Origin: Chloroflexota bacterium
Lineage (GTDB): Bacteria > Chloroflexota > UBA11872
Assembly: GCA_965198185.1 (NCBI GenBank)
Contig: CBDAOU010000001.1
Location: 636,310 to 700,309, forward strand
Direction: 5' to 3'
Length of the DNA stretch: 64,000 bases
The stretch's first letter is position 1. Each line of letters starts with the position of its first letter. The notes under the pieces were generated by a model. The model did no database searches and was not told the DNA's origin. It saw only the letters and a list, made by a program, of their open reading frames with translations. Below are positions 10,206 through 40,578 of this stretch, one piece after another. The translations under genes were made by a program, and so were the position numbers.

Positions 10206-10293
10206 GGAGGGGTGTCCGAGTGGCTTAAGGAGGTGGTCTTGAAAACCACTAGGCGGCTTGCCCGCCTCGTGGGTTCGAATCCCACCCCCTCCG
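10206..10293 (+). tRNA. tRNA-Ser (anticodon TGA)
   Basis: Cloverleaf: acceptor GGAGGGG/CCCCTCC, D-arm 'GTCCGAGTGGCTTAAGGAGG', anticodon loop cTTGAaa, long variable arm and a T-arm 'GGGTTCGAATCCCAC'. CCA is encoded at 10294-10296. Confidence 0.85.
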
Positions 10294-10324
10294 CCAGTCG
10301 CCCCGTCCGGCCCGGTCCGATCTT

Positions 10325-10417
10325 GGAGGAGTCGCATAGTTGGTCTAGTGCGGCCGCCTGCTAAGCGGTTACCGGGGGTGTCCCCCTCGGTCGTGGGTTC
10401 GAATCCCACCTCCTCCG
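10325..10417 (+). tRNA. tRNA-Ser (anticodon GCT)
   Basis: Acceptor GGAGGAG/CTCCTCC, anticodon loop CTGCTAA, long variable arm 'TACCGGGGGTGTCCCCCTCGGTC' and a T-arm 'GGGTTCGAATCCCAC'. No encoded CCA. Confidence 0.85.
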
Positions 10418-10623
10418 CCGGCAGTCTCGCTGCGGCCTAGCGCGCGTGTTTGCCGCGCGGCGGCACCCTCGGTGGATCTGCGCCGCCCCACCGATTTCGA
10501 CGCGGCTGCTGGCGATCTCCACCGCGCGGTGACGACGCTCTTACCAGCTTGCGGCACCGACGGTTCCCGCATCTCCAGCACTCGCGCAGCCGACGGTGAG
10601 GCTGCCTGCGATACTATGCATAC

Positions 10624-10881
10624 TTGTATTCACTGCAGTCGGGGACAGACCTCCTGGCGACCTCGATCCGCCTGGCTCCCGAAACCGAGGAGCGACTTCG
10701 CTTCCTCGCCGCTCAAACCGGGCGCTCCAAGGCCTTCTACCTGCGCGAGCTCATCGAAAACGGCATCGATGAGCTTGAGGACTACTACCTGGCCGCCAGT
10801 GTGCTCGAGCGCGTGCGCAAGGGGCGGGAGCGCCTGCATCCGGCCGCCGACGTGAAGGCCGACCTTGGCCTGGACGGTTGA
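10624..10881 (+). CDS. relB: RelB/ParD-type ribbon-helix-helix antitoxin
   Basis: 'TSIRLAPETEERLRFLAAQTGRSKAFYLRELIENGIDELEDYYLA' is an RHH antitoxin signature. The TTG start at 10624 is uncertain. Immediately precedes a RelE/ParE toxin. Confidence 0.65.
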   Translation: MYSLQSGTDLLATSIRLAPETEERLRFLAAQTGRSKAFYLRELIENGIDELEDYYLAASVLERVRKGRERLHPAADVKADLGLDG

Positions 10882-11131
10882 GTACACCGAGACGTCGCTA
10901 GGGCAACTGCGCAAGCTCGACAAACGCATGGCGCGGCGGGTCATCGAGTACATGGACGAGTTGGTCGCGGTCCTCGATGACCCACGGCGACGCGGCAAGG
11001 CATTGACCGGACCCATGGGCGGCTTGTGGCGTTATCGGATAGGGCGGTGCCGCGTAATCTGCGACCTTCAGGATCAGGTGCTGCGCGTACTGGTGCTGCG
11101 TGTCGCGAGGCGGGACCGGGCCTACCGCTGA
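10865..11131 (+). CDS. relE: RelE/ParE-family toxin
   Basis: 88 aa. 'LRKLDKRMARRVIEYMDEL...LWRYRIGRCRVICDLQDQVLRVLVLRVARRDRAY' is a RelE/ParE fold signature. Overlaps the antitoxin 3' end. Confidence 0.75.
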   Translation: MAWTVEYTETSLGQLRKLDKRMARRVIEYMDELVAVLDDPRRRGKALTGPMGGLWRYRIGRCRVICDLQDQVLRVLVLRVARRDRAYR

Positions 11132-11165
11132 CTCGCCAGCGCCGCCTCCCACCAGAGCGTGTCGC

Positions 11166-11570
11166 CTAGAGCCAATTCTCGACGGCCAGCCCCGGAACCC
11201 GCTCGAAGTGCCGCACGTTTCCGGTGACCACTGTCAGGCCCCGCGCGAGCGCGATGGCAGCGATGCGCAGATCGGCGTCGCCCAGGGGCGTGCCGCGCCG
11301 CTCCAGCTCGGTCCGCACTTCCCCGTAGCGCCTCGCGGCAGTGGTATCGAACGGAAGGACCGGCAGCTCCGGCAGGAGCCTGGTTTCGATCTGAGTTAGC
11401 AAGTCATCGGCCTGGGGACCCCGCCGCCGTGCTCCATAAAGCAACTCTCCCAGCGTGATGCTGGAGGTGAACTGCGACTCCGCCGGCACGGCGGCCAGCT
11501 TTGTGATCAGGCTCATCGAGGGGGAACGCTTCAGCAGATTGCTCAGGACGTCGGTATCCAGCAGGTACAT
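11166..11570 (-). CDS. vapC: PIN-domain toxin VapC
   Basis: 134 aa. 'MYLLDTDVLS' N-terminal acidic residue; PIN catalytic Asp/Glu pattern. Downstream of a Phd/YefM antitoxin with a 1-nt overlap. Confidence 0.85.
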   Translation of the reverse strand: MYLLDTDVLSNLLKRSPSMSLITKLAAVPAESQFTSSITLGELLYGARRRGPQADDLLTQIETRLLPELPVLPFDTTAARRYGEVRTELERRGTPLGDADLRIAAIALARGLTVVTGNVRHFERVPGLAVENWL

Positions 11571-11860
11571 CAGTCCTCGAGCGCCACCTCTCGCCCGGTG
11601 TCGTGCTCCCGCGCGGCATAGATGTCGTCGACCATCGCCTCGATGTCGCGGTCGTCGATGTTGCCCCAGGCGCCGATCAAGGCCAGAGCGCCACGCGGCC
11701 GCGCCACGGCCGCCCGCTCGCTCGCGATCTGTTCCAGGTCGTCCACGCTCACCAGCGCGGCCATGGGCTTGCCGCGGCGTTCGATCACGACGTGTTGTCC
11801 CTGGTAGGCAACCGCCGCCATCAGCGACGAAAGCTCGGCTTTTGCCCGCGCCACACTCAC
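11570..11860 (-). CDS. vapB: Phd/YefM-family antitoxin (VapB)
   Basis: 96 aa. 'VVIERRGKPMAALVSVDDLEQI' is the Phd/YefM signature. Its stop overlaps the vapC start. Confidence 0.8.
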   Translation of the reverse strand: MSVARAKAELSSLMAAVAYQGQHVVIERRGKPMAALVSVDDLEQIASERAAVARPRGALALIGAWGNIDDRDIEAMVDDIYAAREHDTGREVALED

Positions 11861-12182
11861 CGTTCTGGTCAGGCTTCGCCTCCGGTACTTCGAAATGGCC
11901 TGCTCACCGTCATGACCATGATGACATATAGGTCAAAAGTAATGCGCTACGCCTTGTAGCAAGCCGCCAGCTGCCCTGAGCCCTTGTCTTCGGGCGGCGC
12001 ATGGAGTCTGTCACGGCAAGAGTCGTCGGATACTGAATGGCGGCACGTCGTACACAGGCGCAGTGCTTGGCGGCGCTTCGGGCTATCTGCCAGCCCGCTT
12101 GGCAGACTTGATCTGGGTATGGAATTCGGTGTCTGCGCCCGCGAGGCCCGGACGCATCAGGCAATGGATTGTCAGTTTGTCG

Positions 12183-12476
12183 TCACGGCGCCTCGGCGAG
12201 AACAGGTTCGACGTGGATGTCGTGCGACCGCTTCATCGCCTGCGCTAAGTCGTAGGCGGCCTGCAGCTGGTACCAGGTGGCCGCGCCGCCGCCGAAGGCC
12301 TTGTCCAGGCGAATCGCCATCTCGGGTGAGATCCCGGAACGACCGTTCACGACGTCCGACAACTGCTTGCGGCTGACGCCGAGCCGCCTTGCTGTCTCCG
12401 TGACGCTCAGGTCGAGCGGCTCCAGACAGTCGAACCGCACCGACAGCCCAGGATGCGGCGGATTCTTCATGGGCAT
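12183..12476 (-). CDS. higA: HigA-like XRE-family HTH antitoxin/antidote protein (no cognate toxin seen)
   Basis: '[43 protein letters not shown]...[10 protein letters not shown]' is the HigA/VapI antidote signature. Only ~90 nt upstream and ~250 nt of ORF-free DNA downstream. Confidence 0.7.
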
Positions 12477-12567
12477 GTGTATGTCCTTCTAGTGATAGTC
12501 AACGAGATTGACATCGCAGGTGTCCGCCCCGCGAAAGCTGAAGACGAAGCGCCGGGGCGATTGGCCG

Positions 12568-12924
12568 TTAGACCATCAGCCCTTCCACAGGCACGAGCCG
12601 CTTGGCGACCGGGTCGACGCCCATGAACACGCCCTCGAGCGCGAGCGCGCCAAGCAGGGGCAAAGTTCCCTCTTCGTTGAACAGCACCAGCGTGACGACC
12701 TCACGCCCCTCGATGCGCACCCACGTCTGGCCAACGTCCATGAGCCGGACCTCGCCCTGCCCAAACTGAAAGCTCTGACGAGTCAGCGGCGCCACGCCCA
12801 GTTCACGCAGCACCGACGCCGGGACCGAGGTGATAGATGCGCCGGTGTCCACTAGCGCATCCAGCGTCGTCCAACGCTCGCGTTCCTGGTCACCGATGCC
12901 GATCGGAATGCTAAACGTTCCCAT
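12568..12924 (-). CDS. retropepsin-like (clan AA) aspartic protease
   Basis: 118 aa with 'LVDTGASITSVP' (DTG catalytic motif), as in bacterial retropepsin-like TIGR02281/TIGR03698-type proteins. Confidence 0.7.
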   Translation of the reverse strand: MGTFSIPIGIGDQERERWTTLDALVDTGASITSVPASVLRELGVAPLTRQSFQFGQGEVRLMDVGQTWVRIEGREVVTLVLFNEEGTLPLLGALALEGVFMGVDPVAKRLVPVEGLMV

Positions 12925-17592: not shown

Positions 17593-19686
17593 CTACTTGA
17601 TCAGCACCAGGTGTTGCAGCCCCTGTTGCTGCGCCATGCCGCCAAGCACCGAGGTGTAGGCGTACTCGACCCGCGACGGTCGGAACACGTCCACCTTCGG
17701 CGTCGTGAACAGCGTCACGTAGGGCAGGTCGTCCGCGAGCAGTTCCTGCATCTGATGGATCTTTTCGCGCGCGCCCTCGATGGTGGTCTCGGACAGCAGG
17801 GCAAAGGCCAGGGCATCGAATTCGGGGTTGGCGTAGCCGCCCCAGTTGTAGCCGCCCTCCTCGTTCTCGGGCGCGTGGCGGCTGTGGAAGATGTTCTCCA
17901 GGTGGTTGGGGAAGATGCTGAAGCCCCAGCCCAGGATCCACATGTCAAGGTCCTCGGCCACCGTCTCGCTGAACAACCGGTCGACGAGGACGTTGAAGCC
18001 CACCAACTGCGCCCGAACGGGAATGCCCAAGTCGTTCAGCCAGCGCTCGATCCAGATGGCGAAGGTGGACCGCAGGGGATCGTAGCCGGCGCTGGGCGCT
18101 ATCAACTCGAGCTTGGGCACCTCAGATCCGTCGGGCATTCGCAGCCCCTTGCCCGGCGTGGACACGAAATCGCCGTCCTCGCTGACCTCCGGCTCCTGCT
18201 CATAGGTGAACCCGGCGTCTTTTAACAGCGCCACGGCCTGTGCGATTCGCTCGCCTTGGCTCAGCCCCTGACCGATCTTGGACGTGGCGTCGTTGTGCCA
18301 AAACGTGTTCCCTTCGGGGACCATGGCGTACATGGGGATCGCCGCGTCCTGCAGGATGGACCGCGACACAAACTCCTTGTCGATCACAGTCGCCACGGCC
18401 TGCCTGAACGCCTTGGAGCTCATCGGGCCCTTGCGCGTGTTGAATCCCAGATAGAACACGCCGTTGTCGAGATTGGTCACGACCTCCAGATCGGGCGCTT
18501 GGCGGACGCGGTCCAGGAAGCCCTTCTCAAGCCCCAACGGGTTGAAGAGGAAGTCGATATCGCCCGTGGTCAGGGCGAGGATCGCCGAATCCTGGTTGCC
18601 ATAGATGCTGAAGATCTCGGTCTCGAAGTGCGGGCCGATCTCGTACTCGAGAACTTTGTCGCCGGTGGCTTCACCGTAGGCGACCTCGGAGTAGCCGAGC
18701 CTCTCGTTCGTCTCCATGTACGCGCCGCTCTCGAACTCGCTCACGACGGCGCCCATCTGGAAGTAGCTCGGGACCGTCTCGTTCTCAAAGAAGGCGCCCG
18801 GTTCCCATTGGCGGTACGCGAGACCGTTGGAAGTGGGCTCGCCGTCGGGCACGTGCGCGAACAGGGCCTCAATCTGCTGAGCCATTTCGCCGGCCTTCTT
18901 GGCCTCCTCGACCACGGGCGCCCAGTAGTGCTCGGGGAGAATTGGCATGAACGCCAAGCCGAACTGCCACACGCTGAGGCCGGGCGTCTGTGGGTTCCCC
19001 TCGGCGTCGGTCGCCTTGAAGTAGATCTTCAGTCGATGGCTGTCGACGGCTTCCACCCGGTCGATGAACGCAGAATGAACCAGCTGGGCCCAGTTGCCGC
19101 CGAGCTGCAGGTCCATGACGGTGTTGACCGTGAAGACGAAGTCAGCCGCCGTCAGCTCCTCGCCGTCGCTCCAGGTCACGCCCCCTTTGAGCGAGACTTC
19201 GGTCGTCCAGAACTCGGCGCCGTCGACGGTCTGCTTTGCCAAGGGCGTCGGGAAACCGTCCGCGGCCACCGGGACCCAGTCGAACCGTTGCGCGGAATAG
19301 CCGTAGAGCTGCGTGGCGTAGCCACTGATCACGTATCCGGTCCAGACCGACCCAGCCGGCCCGCCCAGGTAGTTCCAGATATTGCGCGAGATCGGATCCT
19401 CGAACAGCCCCATCTTGTAGATGGCCGGTCCGGTGGGGGCCGAGGTTTCGGCCGCCTCCGTGGCCGCCGGAGTCGGGGTGGCCTGGACGATGCGCTCGAC
19501 CTCCACGATCTTCTCGACCTCGACCGGGACTTCCACAATTTTTTCGACTTCGACGGTGACGGTGACGATCTTCTCGACCGGTGGAGGCTCGGCGGTGTCG
19601 CCGCAGGCAAGCGCCGAAGCGGCGACGACAAGACTGCCTACAAGGAATACCAGTGGTGCGCGCATGAGCCTGCCCATGAAAGCCAC
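17593..19686 (-). CDS. ABC transporter substrate-binding lipoprotein, family 5 (peptide/nickel)
   Basis: Signal peptide with lipobox 'ALAC', an (EKIVEV)n repeat linker, then an SBP_bac_5 fold. 697 aa, start possibly at an internal Met. Confidence 0.85.
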   Translation of the reverse strand: MAFMGRLMRAPLVFLVGSLVVAASALACGDTAEPPPVEKIVTVTVEVEKIVEVPVEVEKIVEVERIVQATPTPAATEAAETSAPTGPAIYKMGLFEDPISRNIWNYLGGPAGSVWTGYVISGYATQLYGYSAQRFDWVPVAADGFPTPLAKQTVDGAEFWTTEVSLKGGVTWSDGEELTAADFVFTVNTVMDLQLGGNWAQLVHSAFIDRVEAVDSHRLKIYFKATDAEGNPQTPGLSVWQFGLAFMPILPEHYWAPVVEEAKKAGEMAQQIEALFAHVPDGEPTSNGLAYRQWEPGAFFENETVPSYFQMGAVVSEFESGAYMETNERLGYSEVAYGEATGDKVLEYEIGPHFETEIFSIYGNQDSAILALTTGDIDFLFNPLGLEKGFLDRVRQAPDLEVVTNLDNGVFYLGFNTRKGPMSSKAFRQAVATVIDKEFVSRSILQDAAIPMYAMVPEGNTFWHNDATSKIGQGLSQGERIAQAVALLKDAGFTYEQEPEVSEDGDFVSTPGKGLRMPDGSEVPKLELIAPSAGYDPLRSTFAIWIERWLNDLGIPVRAQLVGFNVLVDRLFSETVAEDLDMWILGWGFSIFPNHLENIFHSRHAPENEEGGYNWGGYANPEFDALAFALLSETTIEGAREKIHQMQELLADDLPYVTLFTTPKVDVFRPSRVEYAYTSVLGGMAQQQGLQHLVLIK

Positions 19687-19863
19687 ACCGCCATTGGAGT
19701 CTGGGACCGCGTCCCAATAGTACGCAGTGTCGTTCCGGCGTCGCGAGTCGAGGTAGCAAATCTTCCCGTTGCTCGCGTTCCCTCTAGCAGACCGAAACCG
19801 GCGCTACCAGAGAATGGGCGCCGGGTATCGGGCGATCGCCGGGTCGGGGATCACAATGGTCGA

Positions 19864-20529
19864 GTGGTTGAAAAGGAGATCGTGGCCGAGATTGAGGGCT
19901 TACAGAGAGTCATCGACGGCGCTCGCGCAGTCATCGACAACTTCCGCCCCCACATCCCCATCGACCCTGAATGGCCGGTGGTAGAGCTGGGCAAAGTCGC
20001 ACGCCTTATCAACGGACGAGCCTATACGCGGTCTGAGCTACTGAAAGACGGACCAACGCCGGTTCTGCGCGTGGGGAAATTCTTCTCCAACCGGGAATGG
20101 TTTTACTCGGACTTGCAGCTCAATGACGATAAATATTGCCGGGCCGGAGATCTATTGTACGCATGGTCAGCCTCATTTGGTCCTAGAATCTGGCACTGTC
20201 CAAGAGCAATCTTCCATTATCATATTTGGAAAATCGAAACTACTGAAGATATGAATAAGAAATTTCTCTACTACCTGCTTGATATGGAGTCTGAGAAAAT
20301 CAAAGCAGATGGTCACGGCATCGCTATGATGCACGCGACCGAATCGGGCATGGAGCGTCGCGGATTGCCTCTTCCCCCTCTTGCCACACAGCAGTCAATC
20401 GTTGCGGAACTCGATGAGGAAGAGGGCCTGATCTCCGCCAATCGCAATCTGATCGACCGATTTGAGCGTAAGATCCAAGCCGCCATCGCCCGCGTCTGGG
20501 GCGATGGCGCTAGCCGAACAGTCGCGTAA
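19864..20529 (+). pseudogene. hsdS: type I restriction-modification specificity subunit (HsdS) remnant: a single target-recognition domain flanked by conserved helices
   Basis: 'VAEIEGLQRVIDGARAVIDNF' and 'LPPLATQQSIVAELDEEEGLISANRNLIDRFERKIQA' are the HsdS conserved coiled-coil regions, bracketing an AT-rich TRD. No hsdM/hsdR, no TRD1 and no ATG start. Confidence 0.6.
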
Positions 20530-21133
20530 GCCAAGCGACGAATCTCTGACAGAGATCGCCATCCACGTCGAGGTCTCGGGCTCGGATAGCCAGGCCCATT
20601 TGCCTAGGATCTTCCCGGGCAGCCAGCCAGGCATACAGCTGTGCCCGCACGGTCTTGCTCGCGGCGAACGGCGGGTTAGGTATCTCGTCGATATACCGCT
20701 GCGAAAGCGGCCACACCGGATCGTCCGCCGGGACCATCTGGATCACGAAGTTTTCAAGCTCACCGGCTGAATGGTTGTCAGGCATCACCCAGACTCCGAT
20801 GCGGGGCCTGTCGCTGGTGCTATTGATGATGGTTCCTGACGCTTCGGGTGAGCTTGGGATGCAAACGTCCTCGTCGGCAAGGCGATCTCTTACGGCGTCC
20901 CAGCGAGCCGGGACATTGTGGTTGGCGTCTACGACGATCCCGATCGACTGACGCCCTGGAGCAAGGATGTCCGCGCCAAGATCATCCAGCAGCGTATCAA
21001 TGCCACCCTTTGGCTCAACGTGAAAGGACGTTGACGGTTCGCAGCGCTCACATATCCGCGCCACGACATGCTTCTCATCCGGACCTTCGACAATGAGCAC
21101 ACGGCTCAGCGACGCTGACCCAGGAAGCGACAC
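20510..21133 (-). CDS. DUF4276-like (Toprim/OLD-nuclease-like) protein, partner of the upstream ABC-type ATPase
   Basis: 207 aa with an N-terminal 'VLIVEGPDEKHV' (EGxDE motif, as I recall for DUF4276). Starts 4 nt after the ATPase stop. Lower GC. Confidence 0.55.
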   Translation of the reverse strand: MSLPGSASLSRVLIVEGPDEKHVVARICERCEPSTSFHVEPKGGIDTLLDDLGADILAPGRQSIGIVVDANHNVPARWDAVRDRLADEDVCIPSSPEASGTIINSTSDRPRIGVWVMPDNHSAGELENFVIQMVPADDPVWPLSQRYIDEIPNPPFAASKTVRAQLYAWLAAREDPRQMGLAIRARDLDVDGDLCQRFVAWLTRLFG

Positions 21134-21136
21134 AAG

Positions 21137-22231
21137 CTATCTGACTTCGATACCGCTTCTGGCTGCGGCCTTGAGGTTCAGCTCCGAGTACTCGACCGCG
21201 CGGACGGCATCACCGTCCCTCTCGAGTCGCACAAGGGCGGCTTCCACTTCATCGACGTCCTCCGCCGCCTGCGCAAATCCCCTCACACAGTCCCAGCCAT
21301 GTGTGGTAGCCAACACCTGCACGTTGTTCGCCTGCGCCGTCTTTAGCACCATGGTCCAGAAATCACGCTGAATCGAGTGATGGATGCCGTTTTCCACTTC
21401 ATCAATTAGCAAGAACCCGTCTTTGCAGTTGGCGAGGGCTAGTGCAACGCCGAATATGCGCATAGCTCCGTCGCCGAGACTTTTCAAGGGAACCGGACTG
21501 TGATCGCCTACAATTCTTACAAATGGACGCTGGCTATAACCGCCTATATAACGCCCGTCACTGCTAACCATGGCGATACGTTCAATCTGGTCGCCAAGAG
21601 CTGCATTCAAGGCTTGGATCGCTCGCTGCTCGTCATCGGTAAGGACCGCTCTATCCCAGAATCTCGATACAGTATTATTGTCCAAGATATCCGGGCCTAG
21701 ATATTCATAGACAATCTCATTTGTTCCTGTCATCTCTGGAATGCTTTCTCGAAATCGTTTAAGAGTGATATGCGGGTGGTCAGTTAGCGTAATGCTTCGC
21801 TCGCTACCCTGGAATTCAGCGGTCAGAAGATGTCCCATATATTCTCCAAATGCTCCCTCTTTGGCCATTGGCGTGGTAACGCATACTTTGTCGGAGCTTA
21901 TCGGCCCTACTGAAAAAAAAGTGTCAGGATGGATGGTCCTGCCGTTGAATACAGCCTTCCAATTCAATACTATGATTAGATCGCCGTCATCATCGACGCC
22001 CTCTCCGTGCTCTTGTCGGTCATACAATATCTTCGATATGACAGAGTAGTCCCCGCGTGATGCAAAAACCCTTACGGCGTCAAGCAAGGTCGTTTTACCT
22101 ACGCCATTTTTGCCGGCGAACAGCGTCACGCGACCCAAGCGTCGAATCTCAAGATCGTCGATCCCGCGAAAACCGTTAATCGACAAGCTGGGAAGGTGCA
22201 GTGCTTCGGCGGTAGCTAGTATTTTAGACAT
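21137..22231 (-). CDS. ABC-type (AAA_21/AAA_15-like) ATPase
   Basis: Walker A 'GKNGVGKTT', Walker B 'LLIDEVENGIH', D-loop/H-loop 'LATTH'. 364 aa. Noticeably AT-richer than flanking genes. Confidence 0.8.
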   Translation of the reverse strand: MSKILATAEALHLPSLSINGFRGIDDLEIRRLGRVTLFAGKNGVGKTTLLDAVRVFASRGDYSVISKILYDRQEHGEGVDDDGDLIIVLNWKAVFNGRTIHPDTFFSVGPISSDKVCVTTPMAKEGAFGEYMGHLLTAEFQGSERSITLTDHPHITLKRFRESIPEMTGTNEIVYEYLGPDILDNNTVSRFWDRAVLTDDEQRAIQALNAALGDQIERIAMVSSDGRYIGGYSQRPFVRIVGDHSPVPLKSLGDGAMRIFGVALALANCKDGFLLIDEVENGIHHSIQRDFWTMVLKTAQANNVQVLATTHGWDCVRGFAQAAEDVDEVEAALVRLERDGDAVRAVEYSELNLKAAARSGIEVR

Positions 22232-22443
22232 CGCGCCGCCCCTTCCCTATCGGCGACTTGCGAAATGTGCGTGTGCACTGGCAGCCAAGGGAATTGTAGC
22301 CGCCTTTCGGCTAGCCTCTAATCCGCGCCGGAATCGGCCCAACCGCGCGCTGTGCCATCCAGGCGGATACCCTGGCCTTTCAAGATTGGCTGACGGGATT
22401 AGGCGCTCGTTCGGCGCCTGGCATTGTGCGAGCGGGCCGCGCG

Positions 22444-23364
22444 TCAAACCTCCCCCTCCGCCCACGCCCGGATCAGATGGTGCGCGATGGCGAAATTGCC
22501 GGGCACGCGTAGCTCGGGATCGGCGCCGGCGAGGGCTCGCAGCACGGTGGCGCGGTCGAACCAGCGCACGGCCTGCATCTCCACGTCGTCGGGGCGCAGG
22601 TCAAGCGTGAGCGCGTCGGCGTGGCAGCCGATCATCAGCGACGAGGGAAACGGCCAGGGCTGCGACGAGTGGTAGCGCACCGCGCCCACCTGGATGCCGG
22701 CTTCCTCGGCCACTTCGCGCCGCACGGCTTCCTCGATGGACTCTCCCTGGTCCATGAATCCGGCCAGCGCCGAAAACATGCGCTGGCTCGCCAGCCGGCC
22801 GCGGGATTGCCCCAGCAGGCAGCGGTCGCCGTCGGCGACCACCACGATCACCACCGGGTCCGTGCGCGGGAAGTGCTCCGCGCCGCAATGCCCGCAGCGG
22901 CGCTGCTGGCCGCCGCGCAGCGGCGCGGTGGGCTGGCCGCACCGGCTGCAAAAGCGATGGCGCGCGTGCCAGTCCACGTTCGCGCGCGCCTGCGCCGCGA
23001 TGCCGGCCTCGGCGGCGGGGAGCAGGACCGCGGCCCCGCGCAGCTCAATAAAGCGCCGCGCGCCGCCTTCGGTCAGGTCGCCGGGATGGTCCGAGACGTC
23101 CACGGCAAAGTGCGCCACGCCGTCCCCGAGCCCCAGCAGATAGCGCGGGCCGTCCACCCGCATCTCGACCAGCCAGCGACCCGTCCGCCAGGCCAAGCGC
23201 GTGGCGGCGGTTTCGTGCACCAAGACTTCCAGCCGTCGCAGCGGCAGGAAGACGCTGGCCGGGTCCCGCTCGCGCCGCGCGATCCACGCCGGGTCGCGCC
23301 GCTCGTGCTCGGCGCGATCCAGCCGGTTTCCGCTGAAGGTGTGTGGACGAGTCACAGGCGGCAA
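22444..23364 (-). CDS. nudC: NAD+ diphosphatase (NADH pyrophosphatase)
   Basis: Zinc ribbon 'CSRCGQPTAPLRGGQQRRCGHCG' followed by a Nudix box 'GFMDQGESIEEAVRREVAEEAG'. Confidence 0.8.
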   Translation of the reverse strand: MPPVTRPHTFSGNRLDRAEHERRDPAWIARRERDPASVFLPLRRLEVLVHETAATRLAWRTGRWLVEMRVDGPRYLLGLGDGVAHFAVDVSDHPGDLTEGGARRFIELRGAAVLLPAAEAGIAAQARANVDWHARHRFCSRCGQPTAPLRGGQQRRCGHCGAEHFPRTDPVVIVVVADGDRCLLGQSRGRLASQRMFSALAGFMDQGESIEEAVRREVAEEAGIQVGAVRYHSSQPWPFPSSLMIGCHADALTLDLRPDDVEMQAVRWFDRATVLRALAGADPELRVPGNFAIAHHLIRAWAEGEV

Positions 23365-23406
23365 CGCATGCTGCTAGCGGTCATTTGTCTCGTGTTGGAG
23401 AACGTC

Positions 23407-23721
23407 ATGCCGCGCATCGCTTTTGCCCTGCCGATCAAGCCCGACAAGATTGACGCCTACCGGGAGACTCACGCCAACGTGTGGCCCGAGTTGCTGGCCG
23501 AGAATACCGTCGCGGGCCTTCGCAACTACACCATCGTGCTCTTCGGCCATCACGCCATCGGCCTGCTGGAGTGCGACGACTGGGATGCCGCGACGGCGTA
23601 CCTGGCGAAGTCGGAATCGCAGCTGCGCTGGCAAGAGCTGCACAAGGACATCCTGGACGTGGACATGAGCACGGGCCTGGTGCCGCTGGAGATGCTGGAC
23701 GAGCTTTTCCACCAGGACTGA
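23407..23721 (+). CDS. L-rhamnose mutarotase-like (RhaM/DUF718 family) protein
   Basis: 104 aa. 'MPRIAFALPIKPDKIDAYRETHANVWPELLAE...NYTIVLFGH' resembles RhaM 'M.R.AF.M.V.P....Y...H.PIWPEL'. Confidence 0.6.
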   Translation: MPRIAFALPIKPDKIDAYRETHANVWPELLAENTVAGLRNYTIVLFGHHAIGLLECDDWDAATAYLAKSESQLRWQELHKDILDVDMSTGLVPLEMLDELFHQD

Positions 23722-23841
23722 CGGGGAAGTTCGTCCGGCGTGGCGCTGCGGGATATATCATTCGTGACTGCGCGATTCAGCGCGCCGCCGGTGGCGGGCC
23801 CGCGCCCGCGACCCTTTTCCTGACTTCTCAAAGGACCTGCC

Positions 23842-25530
23842 ATGCCTCCGTTGCCGCGACCCAACAGCGCCGCCATGACCGAAGGCCCGGCGCGCGCCCC
23901 CGCACGCTCAATGCTCAAGTCCATCGGCTTCGCCGACGAGGACCTGCGACGTCCGATCGTCGGTGTGGCGCACCAGTGGATCGAGACCATGCCGTGCAAC
24001 TTCAACCACCGCGAGATGGCCGAGCACGTCAAGGCCGGGGTGCGGGCGGCGGGCGGCATGCCGGTGGAATTCAACACCATCTCCGTCTCCGACGGCGTGG
24101 CGATGGGCACCGAGGGGATGCGCGCATCGCTGGTGAGCCGCGAGGTCATCGCCGACTCGATCGAGCTGGCGGCGCGGGGCCACTGCATCGACGCGCTGGT
24201 GGTGCTCGTCGGCTGCGACAAGACCATTCCGGCGGGCGCGATGGTGCTGGCGCGGCTCAACCTGCCCGGGCTGGCGTTCTACACCGGCAGCATCGCCCCG
24301 GGCGTTCACCGCGGCCGCGACGTCACCATTCAAGACGTGTTTGAAGGCGTGGGCTCGCACGCGGCGGGGCGCATCGACGACGCCGAGCTGTTGGCCCTGG
24401 AGGACGCCGCCTGTCCCGGCGCCGGGGCCTGCGGGGGGCAGTTCACCGCCAACACCATGGCCACCGCGCTGGAGTTCCTGGGTATAAGCCCGGCGGGCGC
24501 CAACGCGGTTCCGGCCACCAACGCGGCCAAGGCGCAGGCGGCGGTTGCCGCCGGCGAGCTGGCCGTCGACCTGCTGCGGCGCGATGTGCGCCCGCGCGAG
24601 GTCATCACCCGCGCGTCCATGGAGAACGCCATTGCCTCGCTCGCGGCGACCGGCGGCTCGACCAACGCGGTGCTGCACCTCATGGCCATTGCCCACGAGG
24701 CCGGCGTTGCGCTCGAGTTGGAGGACTTCGACCGCATCGCCGAGCGCACGCCGATCATCACCGACCTCAAGCCCACCGGCCGCTACGTGGCATCGGATGT
24801 CCATGCGGCCGGTGGCCTGGCCGTCGTCGCCGCCGAGCTGGCGTCGCGCGACTTGCTGCATGCGGACGCGCGCAACGTCGACGGCCGGACCGTGGCGGAG
24901 ATTGCCGCCGCCGCGCAGCGGTCGGACGCCGCCGGTGACGTGATCACGAGCATCGACGCGCCGGTCAAGGCCAGCGGCGGGATCGCCATTCTGCGCGGCA
25001 ATCTGGCTCCCGACGGCTGCGTCGCCAAGGTCTCCGGACAGGAGGCGACGCCCTTCAGCGGGCCGGCTCGGGTCTTCGACGGCGAGGCCGCGTGCTACGC
25101 GGCTCTTGAGGCTGGTCAGATTGCTCCCGGCGACTTCGTGGTGATTCGCTACGAGGGGCCGGTGGGCGGTCCCGGCATGCGCGAGATGCTGCAGGTGACG
25201 GGCGCGCTGCAGGGCGCGGGCCTGGGCGACTCCGTGGCCCTGATGACGGACGGACGGTTTTCGGGCGCCTCCCACGGCCGCATGGTCGGGCACGTGGCGC
25301 CCGAGGCCGCCCATGGCGGGGCCATTGCGATCGTGCGCGACGGCGACCGCATCACCCTCGATCCCGTGGGTCGCCGGCTGCAGGTTGCTCTCTCGGACGA
25401 GGAAATCGCCGAGCGCCTGGCGGCCTGGAGCCCGCCGCCGGCGCGCTATCCCGGCGGCGTGATGGCCAAATACGCCGCGCAGGTGTCGTCGGCGAGCGCG
25501 GGAGCCGTGACCAGCATCTTCACGCCCTAG
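23842..25530 (+). CDS. ilvD: IlvD/EDD-family dehydratase (dihydroxy-acid or sugar-acid dehydratase)
   Basis: '[10 protein letters not shown]' and '[16 protein letters not shown]' Fe-S cluster motifs, C-terminal 'SGASHG'. Start possibly at the internal Met at 23875. Confidence 0.85.
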
Positions 25531-26657: not shown

Positions 26658-27890
26658 ATGTTGCTGGTTCCGAACATATGGAAAAGCCCCGCCGCCGGAG
26701 ACGCCATGTCCGCAGTTGAGGCAACCAACGCAGCCACCGGTCAGCGCGCCGGGCGCTACGTTACCCAGCCGCAGGGCTATCGAGCGTTTATGCCATTCCC
26801 GTTGCCCCCGGAGCCGCCGGTGCGTCTGGAAGCCGAGCTGCAAACCCTGCTCTCCCAAGCGGACCAAGCCCTGGGCCGGCTGGACGGCTCGATCCAAACG
26901 CTGCCGGACCCGGACCTCTTCGTGTTCATGTACGTGCGCAAGGAGGCCGTGCTCTCCAGCCAGATCGAGGGCACGCAGAGCTCCCTGCAGGACGTGCTGG
27001 CCGCCGAGGCCCGAATCCGCTCGCCGGACCGGCCGCGCGACGTCGACGAGGTCATCAACTACGTGACCGCCATGAGTCACGGCCTGGACCGCTTGCAGAC
27101 GCTGCCGCTGTCAATTCGCTTGATCCGGGAGATTCATGCCCGGCTGTTGCACGGCGTTCGCGGATCCCGGATGCAGCCGGGCGAGCTGCGCACCAGCCAG
27201 AACTGGATCGGTCCTGCCGGATCCACGCTCAATGACGCCATGTTCATCCCCCCGCCGCCGCGGGAGGTGCCGCACGCACTCGGAGCGCTGGAGGGCTTTG
27301 TTCACAGCCCCAGTGAGTTGCCGGTGCTGGTCCAGATTGGCCTGATCCACGCTCAGTTCGAGACGATCCATCCGTTTCTTGACGGAAACGGCCGTGTCGG
27401 CCGGCTGCTCATCACCTTCCTGCTGTGCCAGCGCGGAATTCTCGGGCAGCCGGTGCTCTACCTCTCGCACTTCTTCCGGCAGTACCGCAGTGAGTACTAC
27501 GATCGGCTGCAGGCCGTGCGGGACAGCGGCGATTGGGAAGGCTGGCTGGCCTTCTTCCTGCGCGGCGCGGCGGCGGTTAGCGCCGAGGCCGCGCAGACGG
27601 TGCGCCGCATCCTCACCCTGCGTGAGGAACATCGAACCCTGGTCACGGAGCGCCTGGGCCGCGCCGCCGCCGACGGCCATCGCGTGCTCGGCCACCTGTA
27701 CCGGCGGCCGTTCCTCACCGTTGCCCATGTGCCGGCAATCACGGGGACCAACTATCCCGCCGCCAACCGCCTGGTCGCCCGGCTCGTCCGGATCGGGGTG
27801 TTGGAGGAGATTACGAGCAGCCGGCGCAACCGCGTGTTCCGCTACGGTCCGTACTTGCGGGTCCTGGAGGGCGGCGAGACGGACGAGTAG
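26658..27890 (+). CDS. fic: Fic-family protein (adenylyltransferase/AMPylase family)
   Basis: Canonical Fic motif 'HPFLDGNGRVGRLL' and an N-terminal 'GYRAFMPFPLPP' region typical of class-III/long Fic proteins. Start at 26658 or 26706. Confidence 0.85.
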   Translation: MLLVPNIWKSPAAGDAMSAVEATNAATGQRAGRYVTQPQGYRAFMPFPLPPEPPVRLEAELQTLLSQADQALGRLDGSIQTLPDPDLFVFMYVRKEAVLSSQIEGTQSSLQDVLAAEARIRSPDRPRDVDEVINYVTAMSHGLDRLQTLPLSIRLIREIHARLLHGVRGSRMQPGELRTSQNWIGPAGSTLNDAMFIPPPPREVPHALGALEGFVHSPSELPVLVQIGLIHAQFETIHPFLDGNGRVGRLLITFLLCQRGILGQPVLYLSHFFRQYRSEYYDRLQAVRDSGDWEGWLAFFLRGAAAVSAEAAQTVRRILTLREEHRTLVTERLGRAAADGHRVLGHLYRRPFLTVAHVPAITGTNYPAANRLVARLVRIGVLEEITSSRRNRVFRYGPYLRVLEGGETDE

Positions 27891-37103: not shown

Positions 37104-37373
37104 ATGCCCCCACGGCGCCCACGTGAAGAGGCGGTCCGCCTCGGCAAGGAGAAATACCACCGGGACATCCTGCCTCAGGTCGAGGCTGACCACTTTGGAG
37201 AGTACGTCGCCATCGACATTGAGACCGGGGACTGGGCCGTTGCCGACACGACCCGCGTTGCGGTGGAGCGGCTGCGAGCGCGGCGGCCCGATGCTGTCGA
37301 TGTCTTGTGTGAGCGCGTCGGATACCGGGCGTTGCGCAGCTTCGGGGCCGGGTCCCTGCGGAAGACCGGGTGA
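37104..37373 (+). CDS. small hypothetical protein (89 aa) co-transcribed with a retropepsin-like protease
   Basis: AAGGAGG Shine-Dalgarno 7 nt upstream of the ATG at 37104. 'EADHFGEYVAIDIETGDWAVADTT'. Stop overlaps the protease GTG (GTGA). Confidence 0.6.
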   Translation: MPPRRPREEAVRLGKEKYHRDILPQVEADHFGEYVAIDIETGDWAVADTTRVAVERLRARRPDAVDVLCERVGYRALRSFGAGSLRKTG

Positions 37374-37741
37374 TCGAGGGGGTTGTGAATGCCGCCCGTG
37401 AAGCAGTGGTTCCCCTACACCTACAGGGGCCAGAGGGGCGGACCCGGGAGATCGAGGCCGTGGTCGACACCGGCTACAGCGGTTTCTTGACGCTGCCAAC
37501 TGCGTTGGTGGACGAGATAGGGTTGCCGTTCGCTTACATTGGCCAGGCGCTTCTGGCCAACGACGCTGCGGTCGATTTCGACGTTCACTACGTCACCGTG
37601 CTCTGGGACGGCCAACCGAGAGACATCGAGGCCGACGCGACGGGCAGCACCCCTCTCGTGGGCATGCTGCTCCTAGACAGGCATGACCTGAGCATCCAGG
37701 TTCGGGACGGCGGGCGAGTCCTCATTCAGGCTACGGCATAG
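37370..37741 (+). CDS. retropepsin-like (clan AA) aspartic protease
   Basis: 123 aa with 'VVDTGYSGFLTLP' (DTG motif). Second copy of this family in the window. Confidence 0.7.
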   Translation: MIEGVVNAAREAVVPLHLQGPEGRTREIEAVVDTGYSGFLTLPTALVDEIGLPFAYIGQALLANDAAVDFDVHYVTVLWDGQPRDIEADATGSTPLVGMLLLDRHDLSIQVRDGGRVLIQATA

Positions 37742-37755
37742 ATAATGAATATCGC

Positions 37756-38793
37756 ATGGCTGATGGGATGAGCGAACGGCTGGACATTGCCTACTACTAT
37801 CCCGCGCCCTTTTGGGGCATGGGCGAAGGCAGCTGGATAGAGTCGCTGCTCCTGTTCTTCGATAAGGTCTCCATCCTGCTGCCGGGCTATATATACGGGC
37901 GACATCATTCCGCCGACCCCGTGTTGGCCGAGCCGCTGGAAGACTAAGGTTTGCTGGAGGTGCTCGAACCCAACAAGTGGATAGACCAGGACATGACGAA
38001 GAAGCTGGTAGAGACTGTCAGCGACCTGCTTGCTAACGGTGTGTTCGACAACCTTCCCGGAGAAGTCTATTTCCACGAATTGTCTCAGTCCCGCATGGGC
38101 TACGGGGCCGATGTTGATCTGGCTGAGTCGCTGATATCGAGACTTCGGGCGAAGGGGCTTGCGAAACCGAGCGAGGATGGCGTCTCGATACCCCTCCACC
38201 CGACCGTACGCACGACCATCCTCGTCATCCTCGCCCAACTTGCGCGCTCGGCAGGCAACAAACATAACCTGTCCGTCCACCCTGCTACCCAAGACGGACG
38301 CGCCCTCAAAGACCTCATTGATACCTTATCGAACGAGCGGATGCCTTCCCGCGGCAATGTAGTTGCCCTTGACCTCGAACCCGTCAGCTTCAACCTGGAC
38401 CCAGTGCCTCTTGACGAACTCCTACAATTCCGAGCCGAGCACCATGAGGCGCACCGGGTTTATATGCGTAACCTGCGAGGGTTCATGATGGAGCTTTCCG
38501 ACATCGATAGCCTGGAGGATAGAGCGGCCCTTCTCCTACAGCGACGCCAGGAAATCTCCGACGCTGCTCACGAACTCCAACGCTCTACTCGAATAGCACT
38601 GGGAGTAAACCTTGCCTCATGGTCCCTGGGAATCGCTGGCAGCGCATGGTCGGCTACGACTGGCGACCCGCTCGGAGCCGTGCTTGCGACGTTGGGGCTA
38701 GGCTCAAGCATCGTCGGCTTGGTGGCCACGTCCTCGAACAAGGTCACCGCTTACTCCTATCTGTTTCACGTGCAACGCACCTTTGCGGGGTAA
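37756..38793 (+). pseudogene. 345-aa unknown-function ORF interrupted by a single in-frame TAA (37945-37947)
   Basis: ORFs 37756..37947 and 37951..38793 are in the same frame: '...AEPLED*GLLEVLEPNKW...'. N-terminal 'YYYPAPFWGMGEGSW', C-terminal Gly/Ala/Ser-rich hydrophobic segment. Low GC (~50%). Confidence 0.45.
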
Positions 38794-38889
38794 CCACACG
38801 CAGTTCCGTCCTGCCGACGATCCAATGAAACGGTCCCACGGCGGTTCCGGGAGTACCCTAGGCCCCATGCCGCACTTCCAAAACCCGGC

Positions 38890-40578
38890 ATGAGCAGCCT
38901 CACCGGCGCGGTGTGGGACATCCGCCGCCGCGCGCCGAAGGAGCTCTTTGCGCGGCTGGGGGACGTTCCGCCGCTGGCGGTGCAACTGCTGCACAACCGG
39001 GGCTACGGCGACGAGGCGGCGATCCGCGAGTTCCTGGACGGCCCGCTGCCGCCGCACGATCCCTACCTGCTCGACGGCATGGACGCGGCGGTGACGCGCG
39101 TGGCGCAGGCGCTCGCGCAGGGCGAGCGCGTCTACGTGTACGGCGACTATGACGTGGATGGCGTCACCGGCACGGCGCTGCTGCTGGAGACCTTCGAAAT
39201 GCTGGGCGCCGCCGCCACGCCCTACATTCCCGAGCGGCTGACCGAGGGCTACGGCCTCAACCACGACGCGATCGACGCGATTGGCGCTCAGGGCCCCGGG
39301 CTCATGGTGACGGTGGACTGCGGGATCGGCAGCGCGGATGTGATTGCGCGCGCGCGAGCGCACGGGATCGACACGATCGTGACGGATCACCATATCGGCG
39401 ACGGCGCTGACAGCGGCGCGGTGGCGGTGCTGAACCCCAACCAGCCGGGCGGCGCGTATCCGTTTCCGGGGCTCTCCGGCGTGGGCGTGGCCTACAAGCT
39501 GGTGCAGGCGCTGGCGGAGGAGATGCCGGAGCGCCTGCCGTATCCCGAGGAGTTTCTCGACCTCGTGGCCCTGGGCACCGTCGCGGACATGGCCCCGATC
39601 CGGGACGAGAACCGCACGTTCGTGGCCGAGGGTCTGGAAGCGCTTCGCAAAACCCAGCGCCGAGGTCTGCACGCGCTGGGTGAGGTTGCCCGTCGTCCCG
39701 TTTCACGCATCGACGCCGCCGACATTGCCTTTGGCTATGCGCCGCGACTCAATGCCGCCGGCCGGCTGGCGCGCGCCGATCTGGCGCTGCAATTGCTGCA
39801 AGCTCGCCAGTCAGTCGAGGCCGAATCGGTGGCCCACGAGCTGGACAACCTCAACATCGAGCGCCGCCGCCTGACGCAGCTGGTGATGGACGCGGCCGCG
39901 GCGCAGATCGACCCGGCCGAGCCCTTGGTCTTTGCCATCGGCGAGGAGTTTCCGCTGGGCGTCGTCGGGTTGGCGGCGGGCCGGCTGGTGGAGCAGACGG
40001 GGCTGCCCGCGTTCGTGGGGGCGCATGTGAACGGTGTCGTGCGCGGATCGGCGCGGGCGCCGGAGGGCGTTGGCCTAGCCGACGTGCTTGGCACGCAGGC
40101 GGAGGTACTTGATGCCTGGGGCGGGCACACCCAGGCGGCCGGGTTCACCGTGCGGCCCGAGCGCGTGGATGAGCTGCGCGATGGCCTGGCACGAGAGTTG
40201 GAGCGCGCCGGCGTGAAGGCGCCGGCCGAGCCGCGCTTGGACGCCGACTGCCGTGTCTATCCACGCACGGTGACCTGGGAGACCTACGAAATGACGCAGC
40301 AACTCGGGCCGTTCGGCGAGGCGCATGCCGAACCGCGGTTCGTGGTGGAGAATATTGCTATCGACGAGACGCGCGTCGTCGGCTCGACGCATCTGGCGCT
40401 GCGCTTCGCGGAACTGGGCGCCGATGTGGAGGGGATCTGGTTCGGGCAGGCGGACTTGCGCGCTGCGCTGCCGCCGGGTCGGCGCTGCGACGCCGCGTTT
40501 CGTCTAAATCTGCGCACGTTCAACGGCGAAACGCGGTTGCAAATGCTGATCGACGACATCCGCCACACGGCGGCCTAG
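38890..40578 (+). CDS. recJ: single-stranded-DNA-specific exonuclease RecJ
   Basis: DHH motifs 'VYVYGDYDVDGVT', 'TVDCG', 'VTDHH' and a DHHA1 domain. 562 aa. Confidence 0.9.
   Translation: MSSLTGAVWDIRRRAPKELFARLGDVPPLAVQLLHNRGYGDEAAIREFLDGPLPPHDPYLLDGMDAAVTRVAQALAQGERVYVYGDYDVDGVTGTALLLETFEMLGAAATPYIPERLTEGYGLNHDAIDAIGAQGPGLMVTVDCGIGSADVIARARAHGIDTIVTDHHIGDGADSGAVAVLNPNQPGGAYPFPGLSGVGVAYKLVQALAEEMPERLPYPEEFLDLVALGTVADMAPIRDENRTFVAEGLEALRKTQRRGLHALGEVARRPVSRIDAADIAFGYAPRLNAAGRLARADLALQLLQARQSVEAESVAHELDNLNIERRRLTQLVMDAAAAQIDPAEPLVFAIGEEFPLGVVGLAAGRLVEQTGLPAFVGAHVNGVVRGSARAPEGVGLADVLGTQAEVLDAWGGHTQAAGFTVRPERVDELRDGLARELERAGVKAPAEPRLDADCRVYPRTVTWETYEMTQQLGPFGEAHAEPRFVVENIAIDETRVVGSTHLALRFAELGADVEGIWFGQADLRAALPPGRRCDAAFRLNLRTFNGETRLQMLIDDIRHTAA

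Follow-up and report, generated by a model that had tools for sequence, protein, structure and literature searches.

The immune systems that combine an ATP-binding cassette (ABC) ATPase with a Toprim protein include OLD, Gabija, retron-OLD, PARIS and AbiL. In Bp OLD, the residues of the two-metal site are E400/E404, D455/D457, T506/E508 and K562 (PMC6755086). An insert in the PARIS ATPase has been proposed as the trigger sensor (PMC11464382), and RloAB is also located in type I restriction-modification (RM) loci (PMC13064643). The PDC systems are 145 candidates obtained via "guilt-by-embedding" in type I RM, BREX and DISARM loci; one of them, PDC-M38, is present there only in a supplementary table of cassettes (Payne et al., bioRxiv 10.1101/2024.01.29.577857). 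Here we describe a pair of genes that matches PDC-M38 in a 64-kb stretch of DNA from a Chloroflexota bacterium (contig CBDAOU010000001.1, positions 636,310 to 700,309). This whole stretch is hereafter the window, and all coordinates are based on it. The pair encodes an ABC ATPase (protein A) and a small DUF3226 protein (protein B). We consider it probable that the pair is a horizontally acquired ABC-ATPase plus Toprim ('OLD-like') two-gene module, that it belongs to the PDC-M38 family of phage-defence candidates, and that it is the survivor of a type I RM island.

An earlier reading of the window, made from the sequence alone (the sequence-only reading), had placed both open reading frames (ORFs) correctly on the minus strand, and every motif it quoted was found. 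It had also held that the pair could not be assigned to a named system, and here our data disagree. Protein A matched the PADLOC model PDC-M38A (PDLC04611) at 2.6e-72 (242 bits; residues 13-364 on profile positions 2-383 of 383). Protein B matched PDC-M38B (PDLC04624) at 8.1e-40 (residues 9-206 on positions 12-218 of 220). Both matches are full length, the two genes are adjacent and co-oriented, and all testable features of PDC-M38 were thus present; judged by its sequence, the pair is a member of this candidate system. A literature search of paper texts returned no occurrence of either 'PDC-M38' or 'DUF3226'. DUF3226 was also not among the published partners of such ATPases that we compared (Toprim_OLD, DUF4435, RloB and DUF4276).

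The small protein had been assigned to DUF4276, which Pfam did not bear out. It is a DUF3226 protein (PF11536; 9.6e-49, 166.4 bits against a cutoff of 27, profile positions 2-207 of 208), and no other Pfam family, including DUF4276 (PF14103), RloB, DUF4435 and Toprim_OLD, matched at E<=0.1. The PADLOC models AbiLii, AriB and MAD4 gave no match at the same threshold. NCBIfam held no family for the protein, and no PDB chain was matched by either the sequence itself or the family profile. The AlphaFold2 model, built with 36 homologues, had a predicted local distance difference test score (pLDDT) of 90.5 and a predicted template modelling score of 0.87. Its closest folds were the uncharacterised archaeal protein PH0156 (2p62, score 12.0), the C-terminal region of a class 2 OLD (6nk8, 10.5), Thermus OLD (6p74, 9.0), retron Ec67 (9i2f, 8.6) and GajA (8u7i, 8.1). 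It is by fold comparison only, with no sequence match, that we link the small protein to PH0156 and OLD. The predicted structure shows an OLD-type Toprim-plus-helical fold with conserved acidic, putatively metal-binding motifs, and the fold thereby backs the earlier "Toprim half of OLD" proposal under another family name.

The motif RVLIVEGPDE lies at residues 11-20 of the small protein. In the family alignment, E16 is invariant after strand 1 and is followed four positions on by an acidic residue (E20 here). D69 is invariant after strand 3, and position 71 is N or D (N71 here). After strand 4, D119 is nearly invariant; the next helix opens with a nearly invariant E125 and an invariant E127, and K160 and R163 are invariant too. 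Judged by motif order and predicted secondary structure, the series E16-x3-E20, D69-x-N71, E125-x-E127 and K160/R163 would mirror the site residues of Bp OLD. The small protein keeps all invariant residues and departs at 2 of 72 highly conserved columns, both times by a conservative change. Its best homologue is 79% identical, compared to 55-56% for the ATPase.

Pfam matches to AAA_15 (2.8e-22) and AAA_21 (1.4e-18) agree with the earlier description of protein A as an ABC-type ATPase; its N-terminus also scored above the DUF2813 cutoff. We observed Walker A (GKNGVGKTT, residues 40-48), a signature-like motif (SLGDGAMR, 251-258), Walker B (FLLIDE, 273-278) with a D-loop, an H-loop (LATTH, 307-311) and an ABC head fold, the full set expected of an SMC/Rad50-like ABC ATPase. 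The nucleotide-binding motifs are intact, and the ATPase has a hypervariable insert. Mean identity to 38 homologues was 0.61 at residues 11-100, 0.21 at 101-175 and 0.76 at 246-364. Insertions and deletions vary the middle region from 69 to 118 residues across homologues, and the model of the insert had low pLDDT at 125-131, 151-154 and 163-170. Compared to two other loci that carry the pair (L001 and L002), the small-protein gene and the 3' third of the ATPase gene were 79% identical in nucleotides (nt) and the ATPase 5' end ~75%, with no detectable nt similarity in the ATPase middle region. A dissimilar middle between similar ends suggests that the gene is mosaic and recombining. The hypervariable region seems to be the counterpart of the inserts in ABC-ATPase defences that the PADLOC authors proposed to set trigger specificity (bioRxiv 10.1101/2024.01.29.577857). 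The ATPase keeps every invariant residue.

A scan at one genome per species gave 559 confirmed loci, and the locus counts that follow rest on the best 80. The ATPase lay directly upstream of the DUF3226 gene in 80/80 of these loci, spread over at least eight phyla; in two of them a contig end cuts the ATPase. The hosts were metagenome-assembled genomes (MAGs) of Chloroflexota/Dehalococcoidia, Latescibacterota, Entotheonella, Binatia, Nitrospirales, Gemmatimonadota, Gammaproteobacteria and others, and many carry isolate names that we take to denote marine sponge microbiomes. A DUF3226 profile search of 1.84 billion cluster representatives (50% clustering) returned 3916 matches, 2100 of them at E<=1e-10. 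The top 150 representatives were all stand-alone proteins of 145-274 residues, so there was no fused OLD-like form among them. GC content was lower in the pair than in its flanks at 66 of 76 loci (mean difference -4.8 points; -13 in the window). The pair is a tight operon that is always linked in the other genomes, and it is mobile.

When the two genes closest to the pair on either side were scanned against Pfam at ~75 loci, no conserved third gene emerged. The neighbours included toxin-antitoxin parts (PhdYefM, PIN, HTH), RM genes (Methylase_S, N6_Mtase, Eco57I-type methylases), CAP12 TIR, other AAA_21 genes, phage portal genes and ordinary metabolic genes. AAA_15/AAA_21 genes stood upstream at several loci, which suggests that different ABC-ATPase modules cluster together. 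Two loci also contain a second, distant ATPase paralogue (27-37% identity) a few kilobases from the pair (L044, 10497-11534, minus strand; L073, 13271-13615, minus strand).

The most likely mode of action of the pair is that of a split OLD-type system. On the model of OLD, Gabija and PARIS (PMC6755086, PMC11464382, PMC13064643), an ATPase dimer would hold or gate the Toprim protein, and the hypervariable insert would sense an infection cue. Since the link to type I RM recurs, an anti-restriction protein or a signal from damaged DNA may be this cue. The Toprim nuclease would then be freed or activated as ATP is bound or hydrolysed; it could cut DNA, like OLD and GajA, or tRNA, like AriB, and so abort the infection. 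Because the fold resembles the class 2 OLD catalytic region more closely than AriB, nicking or degradation of DNA is slightly favoured over cleavage of tRNA.

Several points weigh against this explanation. PDC-M38 is a computational candidate only, and other PDC candidates have failed tests (PMC12409345). Many neighbours of the pair are housekeeping genes, and the DUF3226 family was found in 0 of 50,697 phage records. The fold likeness of the small protein comes at 9-17% sequence identity with weak Foldseek E-values (best 6.6e-3). In the window protein and in most relatives, N takes the second 'DxD' position, and the equivalence to OLD residues was drawn from motif order and predicted secondary structure, with no superposition inspected. 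Of 128 highly conserved columns, the window ATPase differs at 15, and its divergent insert is among the shortest; its function may thus be reduced. The DNA or RNA substrate, the trigger and the ATPase-Toprim contact are all steps that we infer.

A further proposal, which we hold only tentatively and are inclined to doubt, is that DUF3226 pairs form a class of their own among split OLD-like immune systems, one not recognised until now. The insert would then be a receptor that evolves fast and recombines, for anti-restriction proteins of phages or for other proteins, and the Toprim partner a toxic nuclease. Such a toxic partner would make the pair self-addictive, and it would accordingly outlive the type I RM system with which it came.

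Table 1. Features of the variable slot and its flanks, in window coordinates.
Feature	Position	Strand	Remarks
Foreign segment / variable slot	19757-22447	.	Between the oligopeptide-binding protein gene and nudC; limits set by the collinear flanks of relatives
Oligopeptide-binding protein gene	17593-19686	-	Left flank of the slot
nudC	22444-23364	-	Right flank of the slot
3'-end remnant of a PIN (VapC-type) toxin gene, 70 nt	19802-19871	-	84-86% nt identity to L081 18161-18230 and L082 18177-18246
hsdS 3' remnant	19864-20529	+	Pfam Methylase_S 6.7e-18; PADLOC Specificity_I 1.2e-36
Inverted repeat	20481-20509	.	Perfect 11 bp, G+C-rich, 7-nt loop, directly after the small-protein stop codon
DUF3226 protein (PDC-M38B), 207 aa, GTG start	20510-21133	-	OLD-type Toprim plus helical domain (model); predicted metal-dependent nuclease effector
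SMC/Rad50-type ABC ATPase (PDC-M38A), 364 aa, ATG start	21137-22231	-	Predicted sensor and regulator
Hypervariable ATPase insert (aa 101-175)	21707-21931	-	Lowest-GC part of the segment; candidate specificity/trigger-recognition region
Non-coding region upstream of the pair	22232-22447	-	Purine-rich, ribosome-binding-like GGGAAGGGG ahead of the ATG

At 2.7 kb, the segment proved slightly wider than the 19864-22231 of the sequence-only reading, which had the region right (Table 1). Its GC was ~0.55 (range 0.47-0.60) compared to 0.68, the lowest of any stretch in the 64 kb, and fell to 0.474 at 21500-21999. The AT-richness noted earlier was reproduced for the ATPase gene (0.518), the small-protein gene (0.603) and the hsdS piece (0.533) against the remaining window (0.681). 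GC at third codon positions was 0.55 and 0.67 in the pair compared to 0.80-0.93 in neighbouring genes. Within the pair, ATPase and small protein are read in that order on the same strand, with a 3-nt spacer from the ATPase stop to the GTG. The operon converges on the hsdS piece, and the 3' ends overlap by 20 nt.

As judged by sequence, the inverted repeat is a possible transcription stop for the pair. No T-run follows the hairpin, and a consensus scan for terminator-like sites gave matches at chance level only. We found no sigma-70-like promoter consensus upstream of the pair. The slot contained no convincing flanking direct repeats, no integrase gene and no tRNA gene. Rfam returned no match at E<=1 in window 19000-23000 to a non-coding RNA such as the retron msr/msd of class 3 OLD.

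Two relatives, L081 and L082, carry a binding-protein orthologue that is 89-90% identical. Both align collinearly with the window (88-89% nt identity) as far as 19748/56, and the alignment resumes at 22448 (aligned flanks 15421-19748/56 and 22448-25530). Between these flanks, in the nudC slot, they contain a small ORF and PhdYefM-PIN (with ParE in L082) and no pair. In L035 (flanks 89% identical) and L001 (81%), the pair occupies a different slot beyond the same transporter operon, adjoining two tRNA-Ser genes (window 10206-10296 and 10325-10419). In the window, this tRNA-Ser slot holds ParE-type, PhdYefM-PIN and HigA-like genes. The window toxin-antitoxin genes at 10578-11935 are 77-85% identical in nt to those in the nudC slot of L081/L082, and the PIN gene behind the 70-nt scar lies in the tRNA-Ser slot of L081/L082. 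On the strength of this likeness across slots and of the scar, slot contents look exchanged between the window and L081/L082.

The segment is foreign: it has a lower GC, is missing from this slot in 88-90% identical relatives and lies elsewhere in others. The earlier proposal of horizontal acquisition is supported. Its 'defence hotspot' goes too far; the site is a small variable slot between housekeeping genes that holds toxin-antitoxin genes in relatives. We also observed that two such slots (10206-12924 and 19757-22447) flank the oligopeptide ABC-transporter operon and differ in content among genomes that are 81-90% identical.

Other features of the window were recorded. Near the N-terminus of the binding protein, short tandem-like repeats at 19487-19580 (ACGATCTTCTCGACC and relatives) encode a repetitive VEVEKIVEVPVEVEKIVEVERIV linker. 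A Fic/DOC family protein is encoded at 26658-27890 (plus strand; Fic_N 3.6e-29, Fic 6.4e-20); its gene is conserved in L081/L082 and hence belongs to the common backbone outside the insert. At 37951-38793 (plus strand), a 280-residue ORF with no Pfam match lies in the second-lowest GC kilobase (0.605 at 38001-39000), beside a 123-residue ORF at 37370-37741 that likewise has no Pfam match. This region may be another small foreign islet.

Acinetobacter and Citrobacter plasmids of 6-14 kb have as their main cargo distant members of the family (19-29% identity) with a neighbouring "ATP-binding protein", and Klebsiella and Plesiomonas plasmids also have DUF3226 matches. In the Acinetobacter and Citrobacter plasmids L083 (NZ_CP035939.1) and L084 (NZ_CP055541.1), the stop and start codons of the ATP-binding protein and DUF3226 genes overlap; one pair lies beside tet(39) and the other beside mobA/traD. 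These two plasmids are culturable sources of the family.

The plasmids bear on what the pair is for. It could be chiefly a toxin-antitoxin-like addiction module, in which a Toprim toxin is checked by the ATPase, loss of the pair is harmful, and plasmids and islands are stabilised rather than defended against phage. Its place as main plasmid cargo is consistent with this, as are the PhdYefM-PIN and ParE modules that fill the same slots in close relatives and the survival of the pair through the decay of the adjacent RM system. PARIS itself behaves as a toxin-antitoxin system of type II, with AriB toxic and AriA the antitoxin (PMC13064643). However, a 364-residue ATPase with a hypervariable insert would be costly as a plain antitoxin and is a better fit for a sensor, and addiction and defence are not mutually exclusive. 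We therefore regard a chiefly addictive role as unlikely.

The hsdS remnant comprises the central conserved region, the second target-recognition domain and the C-terminal conserved region. It starts right after the PIN scar and aligns to the HsdM-S protein of L035 from residue 602 onward only; window 19874-19991 is 89% identical to L035 in nt. No hsdM or hsdR was found in the 64-kb window by tblastn with L035 HsdM and HsdR, in line with the description of this piece as a remnant in the sequence-only reading. A functional HsdS, with two target-recognition domains or as a dimerising half with cognate hsdM/hsdR, was ruled out, since only the second half is present and both partner genes are missing. 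We also noted that a mechanically called 757-residue ORF (18256-20529, plus strand) is an artefact, the antisense of the binding-protein gene running stop-free into the remnant; it leaves the upstream limit of any hsdS' translation undefined.

The L035 pair converges on a type I RM system that is complete, with HsdR and with HsdM-HsdS in one reading frame that has an in-frame stop in hsdS. In L002, among the closest relatives of the pair, an hsdS tail of only 37 residues is left. One type I RM family (HsdR 66-76% and HsdM-S 63-75% amino acid identity to L035) converges on the pair or surrounds it in 8 of the 80 loci (L010, L011, L027, L033, L035, L040, L041 and L043), which are MAGs of Nitrospirales, Binatia, Gammaproteobacteria and Chloroflexota. 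In L027, hsdR and hsdM stand on either side of the pair. Read most simply, the pair came in together with a type I RM system that was later deleted, and the segment is the survivor of a composite island.

The same association could mean that the pair serves type I restriction as a dedicated back-up, a guard in the style of PrrC/RloC or PARIS that fires only on inhibition of its partner RM complex. The window copy would then be a functionless orphan, because hsdM and hsdR are gone. The remnant abutting the pair, the shorter one in L002, the recurrence of one RM family across several phyla and the recovery of PDC-M38 through embedding in RM, BREX or DISARM loci all fit such a guard. Yet ~90% of the 80 loci have no L035-type RM within 8 kb, the plasmid copies have none, and both window genes are intact and have kept their conserved residues after the RM loss. 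Together these observations make a dedicated guard distinctly improbable.

A housekeeping role in DNA repair or chromosome maintenance, comparable to RecF (an ABC ATPase) with the Toprim protein RecR, is very hard to credit: the ATPase fold scores equally high with SMC/Rad50 heads and with defence ATPases, which the fold search did not tell apart, and the ATPase has a weak N-terminal match to RecF (4.4e-08, far below cutoff), but all housekeeping NCBIfam matches fall well short of the cutoff and cover just the P-loop, the insert is hypervariable, and the pair is patchy, plasmid-borne, lower in GC than its hosts and elsewhere or absent in 88-90% identical genomes. The sequence-only reading had named three outcomes that would speak against it (a small protein with no Toprim similarity, a housekeeping ATPase, and core conservation with no GC shift), and our data showed none of them.

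If the PDC-M38 defence module that we favour is real, a large family joins the ABC-ATPase plus Toprim immune group. The compact 207-residue effector and the sharply delimited, sensor-like insert would make it a convenient model for trigger recognition by such ATPases. The locus also records the movement of a module, as slot contents differ among 88-90% identical genomes and an RM system is caught decaying. For annotation, the pair should be named PDC-M38A and PDC-M38B (ABC ATPase and DUF3226 Toprim-like protein), and not DUF4276 or PARIS.

The parallel to split ATPase plus Toprim systems drawn by the earlier reading was upheld by comparison with the known members. Class 2 OLD (Bp and Xcc OLD, GajA) is a single polypeptide, whereas the window pair is two separate genes, has no Toprim_OLD sequence match and, like most relatives, carries N for the second DxD aspartate. 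The split ORFs and the missing Toprim_OLD signature rule out OLD proper (classes 1-2). In PADLOC-DB, the AriA, GajA, PtuA, HEC-01A and MAD3 models cover only the P-loop or the C-terminal ABC core of the ATPase. Gabija was rejected because the GajA hidden Markov model (HMM) covers residues 246-317 only (1e-13) and the slot contains no GajB/UvrD-type helicase gene. The MAD3-MAD4 pair of MADS (DUF4276-type) resembles the window pair in the small stand-alone partner of an AAA_15/21 ATPase, and the ATPase N-terminus weakly matched MAD3 (5e-11, P-loop region only); a DUF4276-type partner was ruled out, as the small protein matched neither DUF4276 nor mad4.

PARIS shares with the pair the two-gene split, an AAA_15/21 ABC ATPase with a Toprim effector, and a thematic link to anti-restriction. 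It was rejected because AriA HMMs cover residues 214-315 only, the partner has no DUF4435/AriB match, and the Foldseek probability to AriB is 0.12. The window ATPase is also ~100 residues shorter, and an AriA IS2-type helical insertion was not evident in its predicted secondary structure, at which no detailed look was taken. AbiL is likewise a two-gene module of an ATPase and a Toprim-like protein, and one AbiLi HMM matched the ATPase end to end (1.3e-44); AbiL/RloAB was set aside because the partner has no AbiLii/RloB match at E<=0.1. With PDC-M38, the pair shares full-length A and B, the A-then-B order and the type I RM association, with no structural difference; the window copy differs by its short, divergent ATPase insert and its lost RM neighbour. 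Nothing at the locus departs from the known ABC ATPase plus Toprim theme, and the window pair is an additional member of an already catalogued candidate family.

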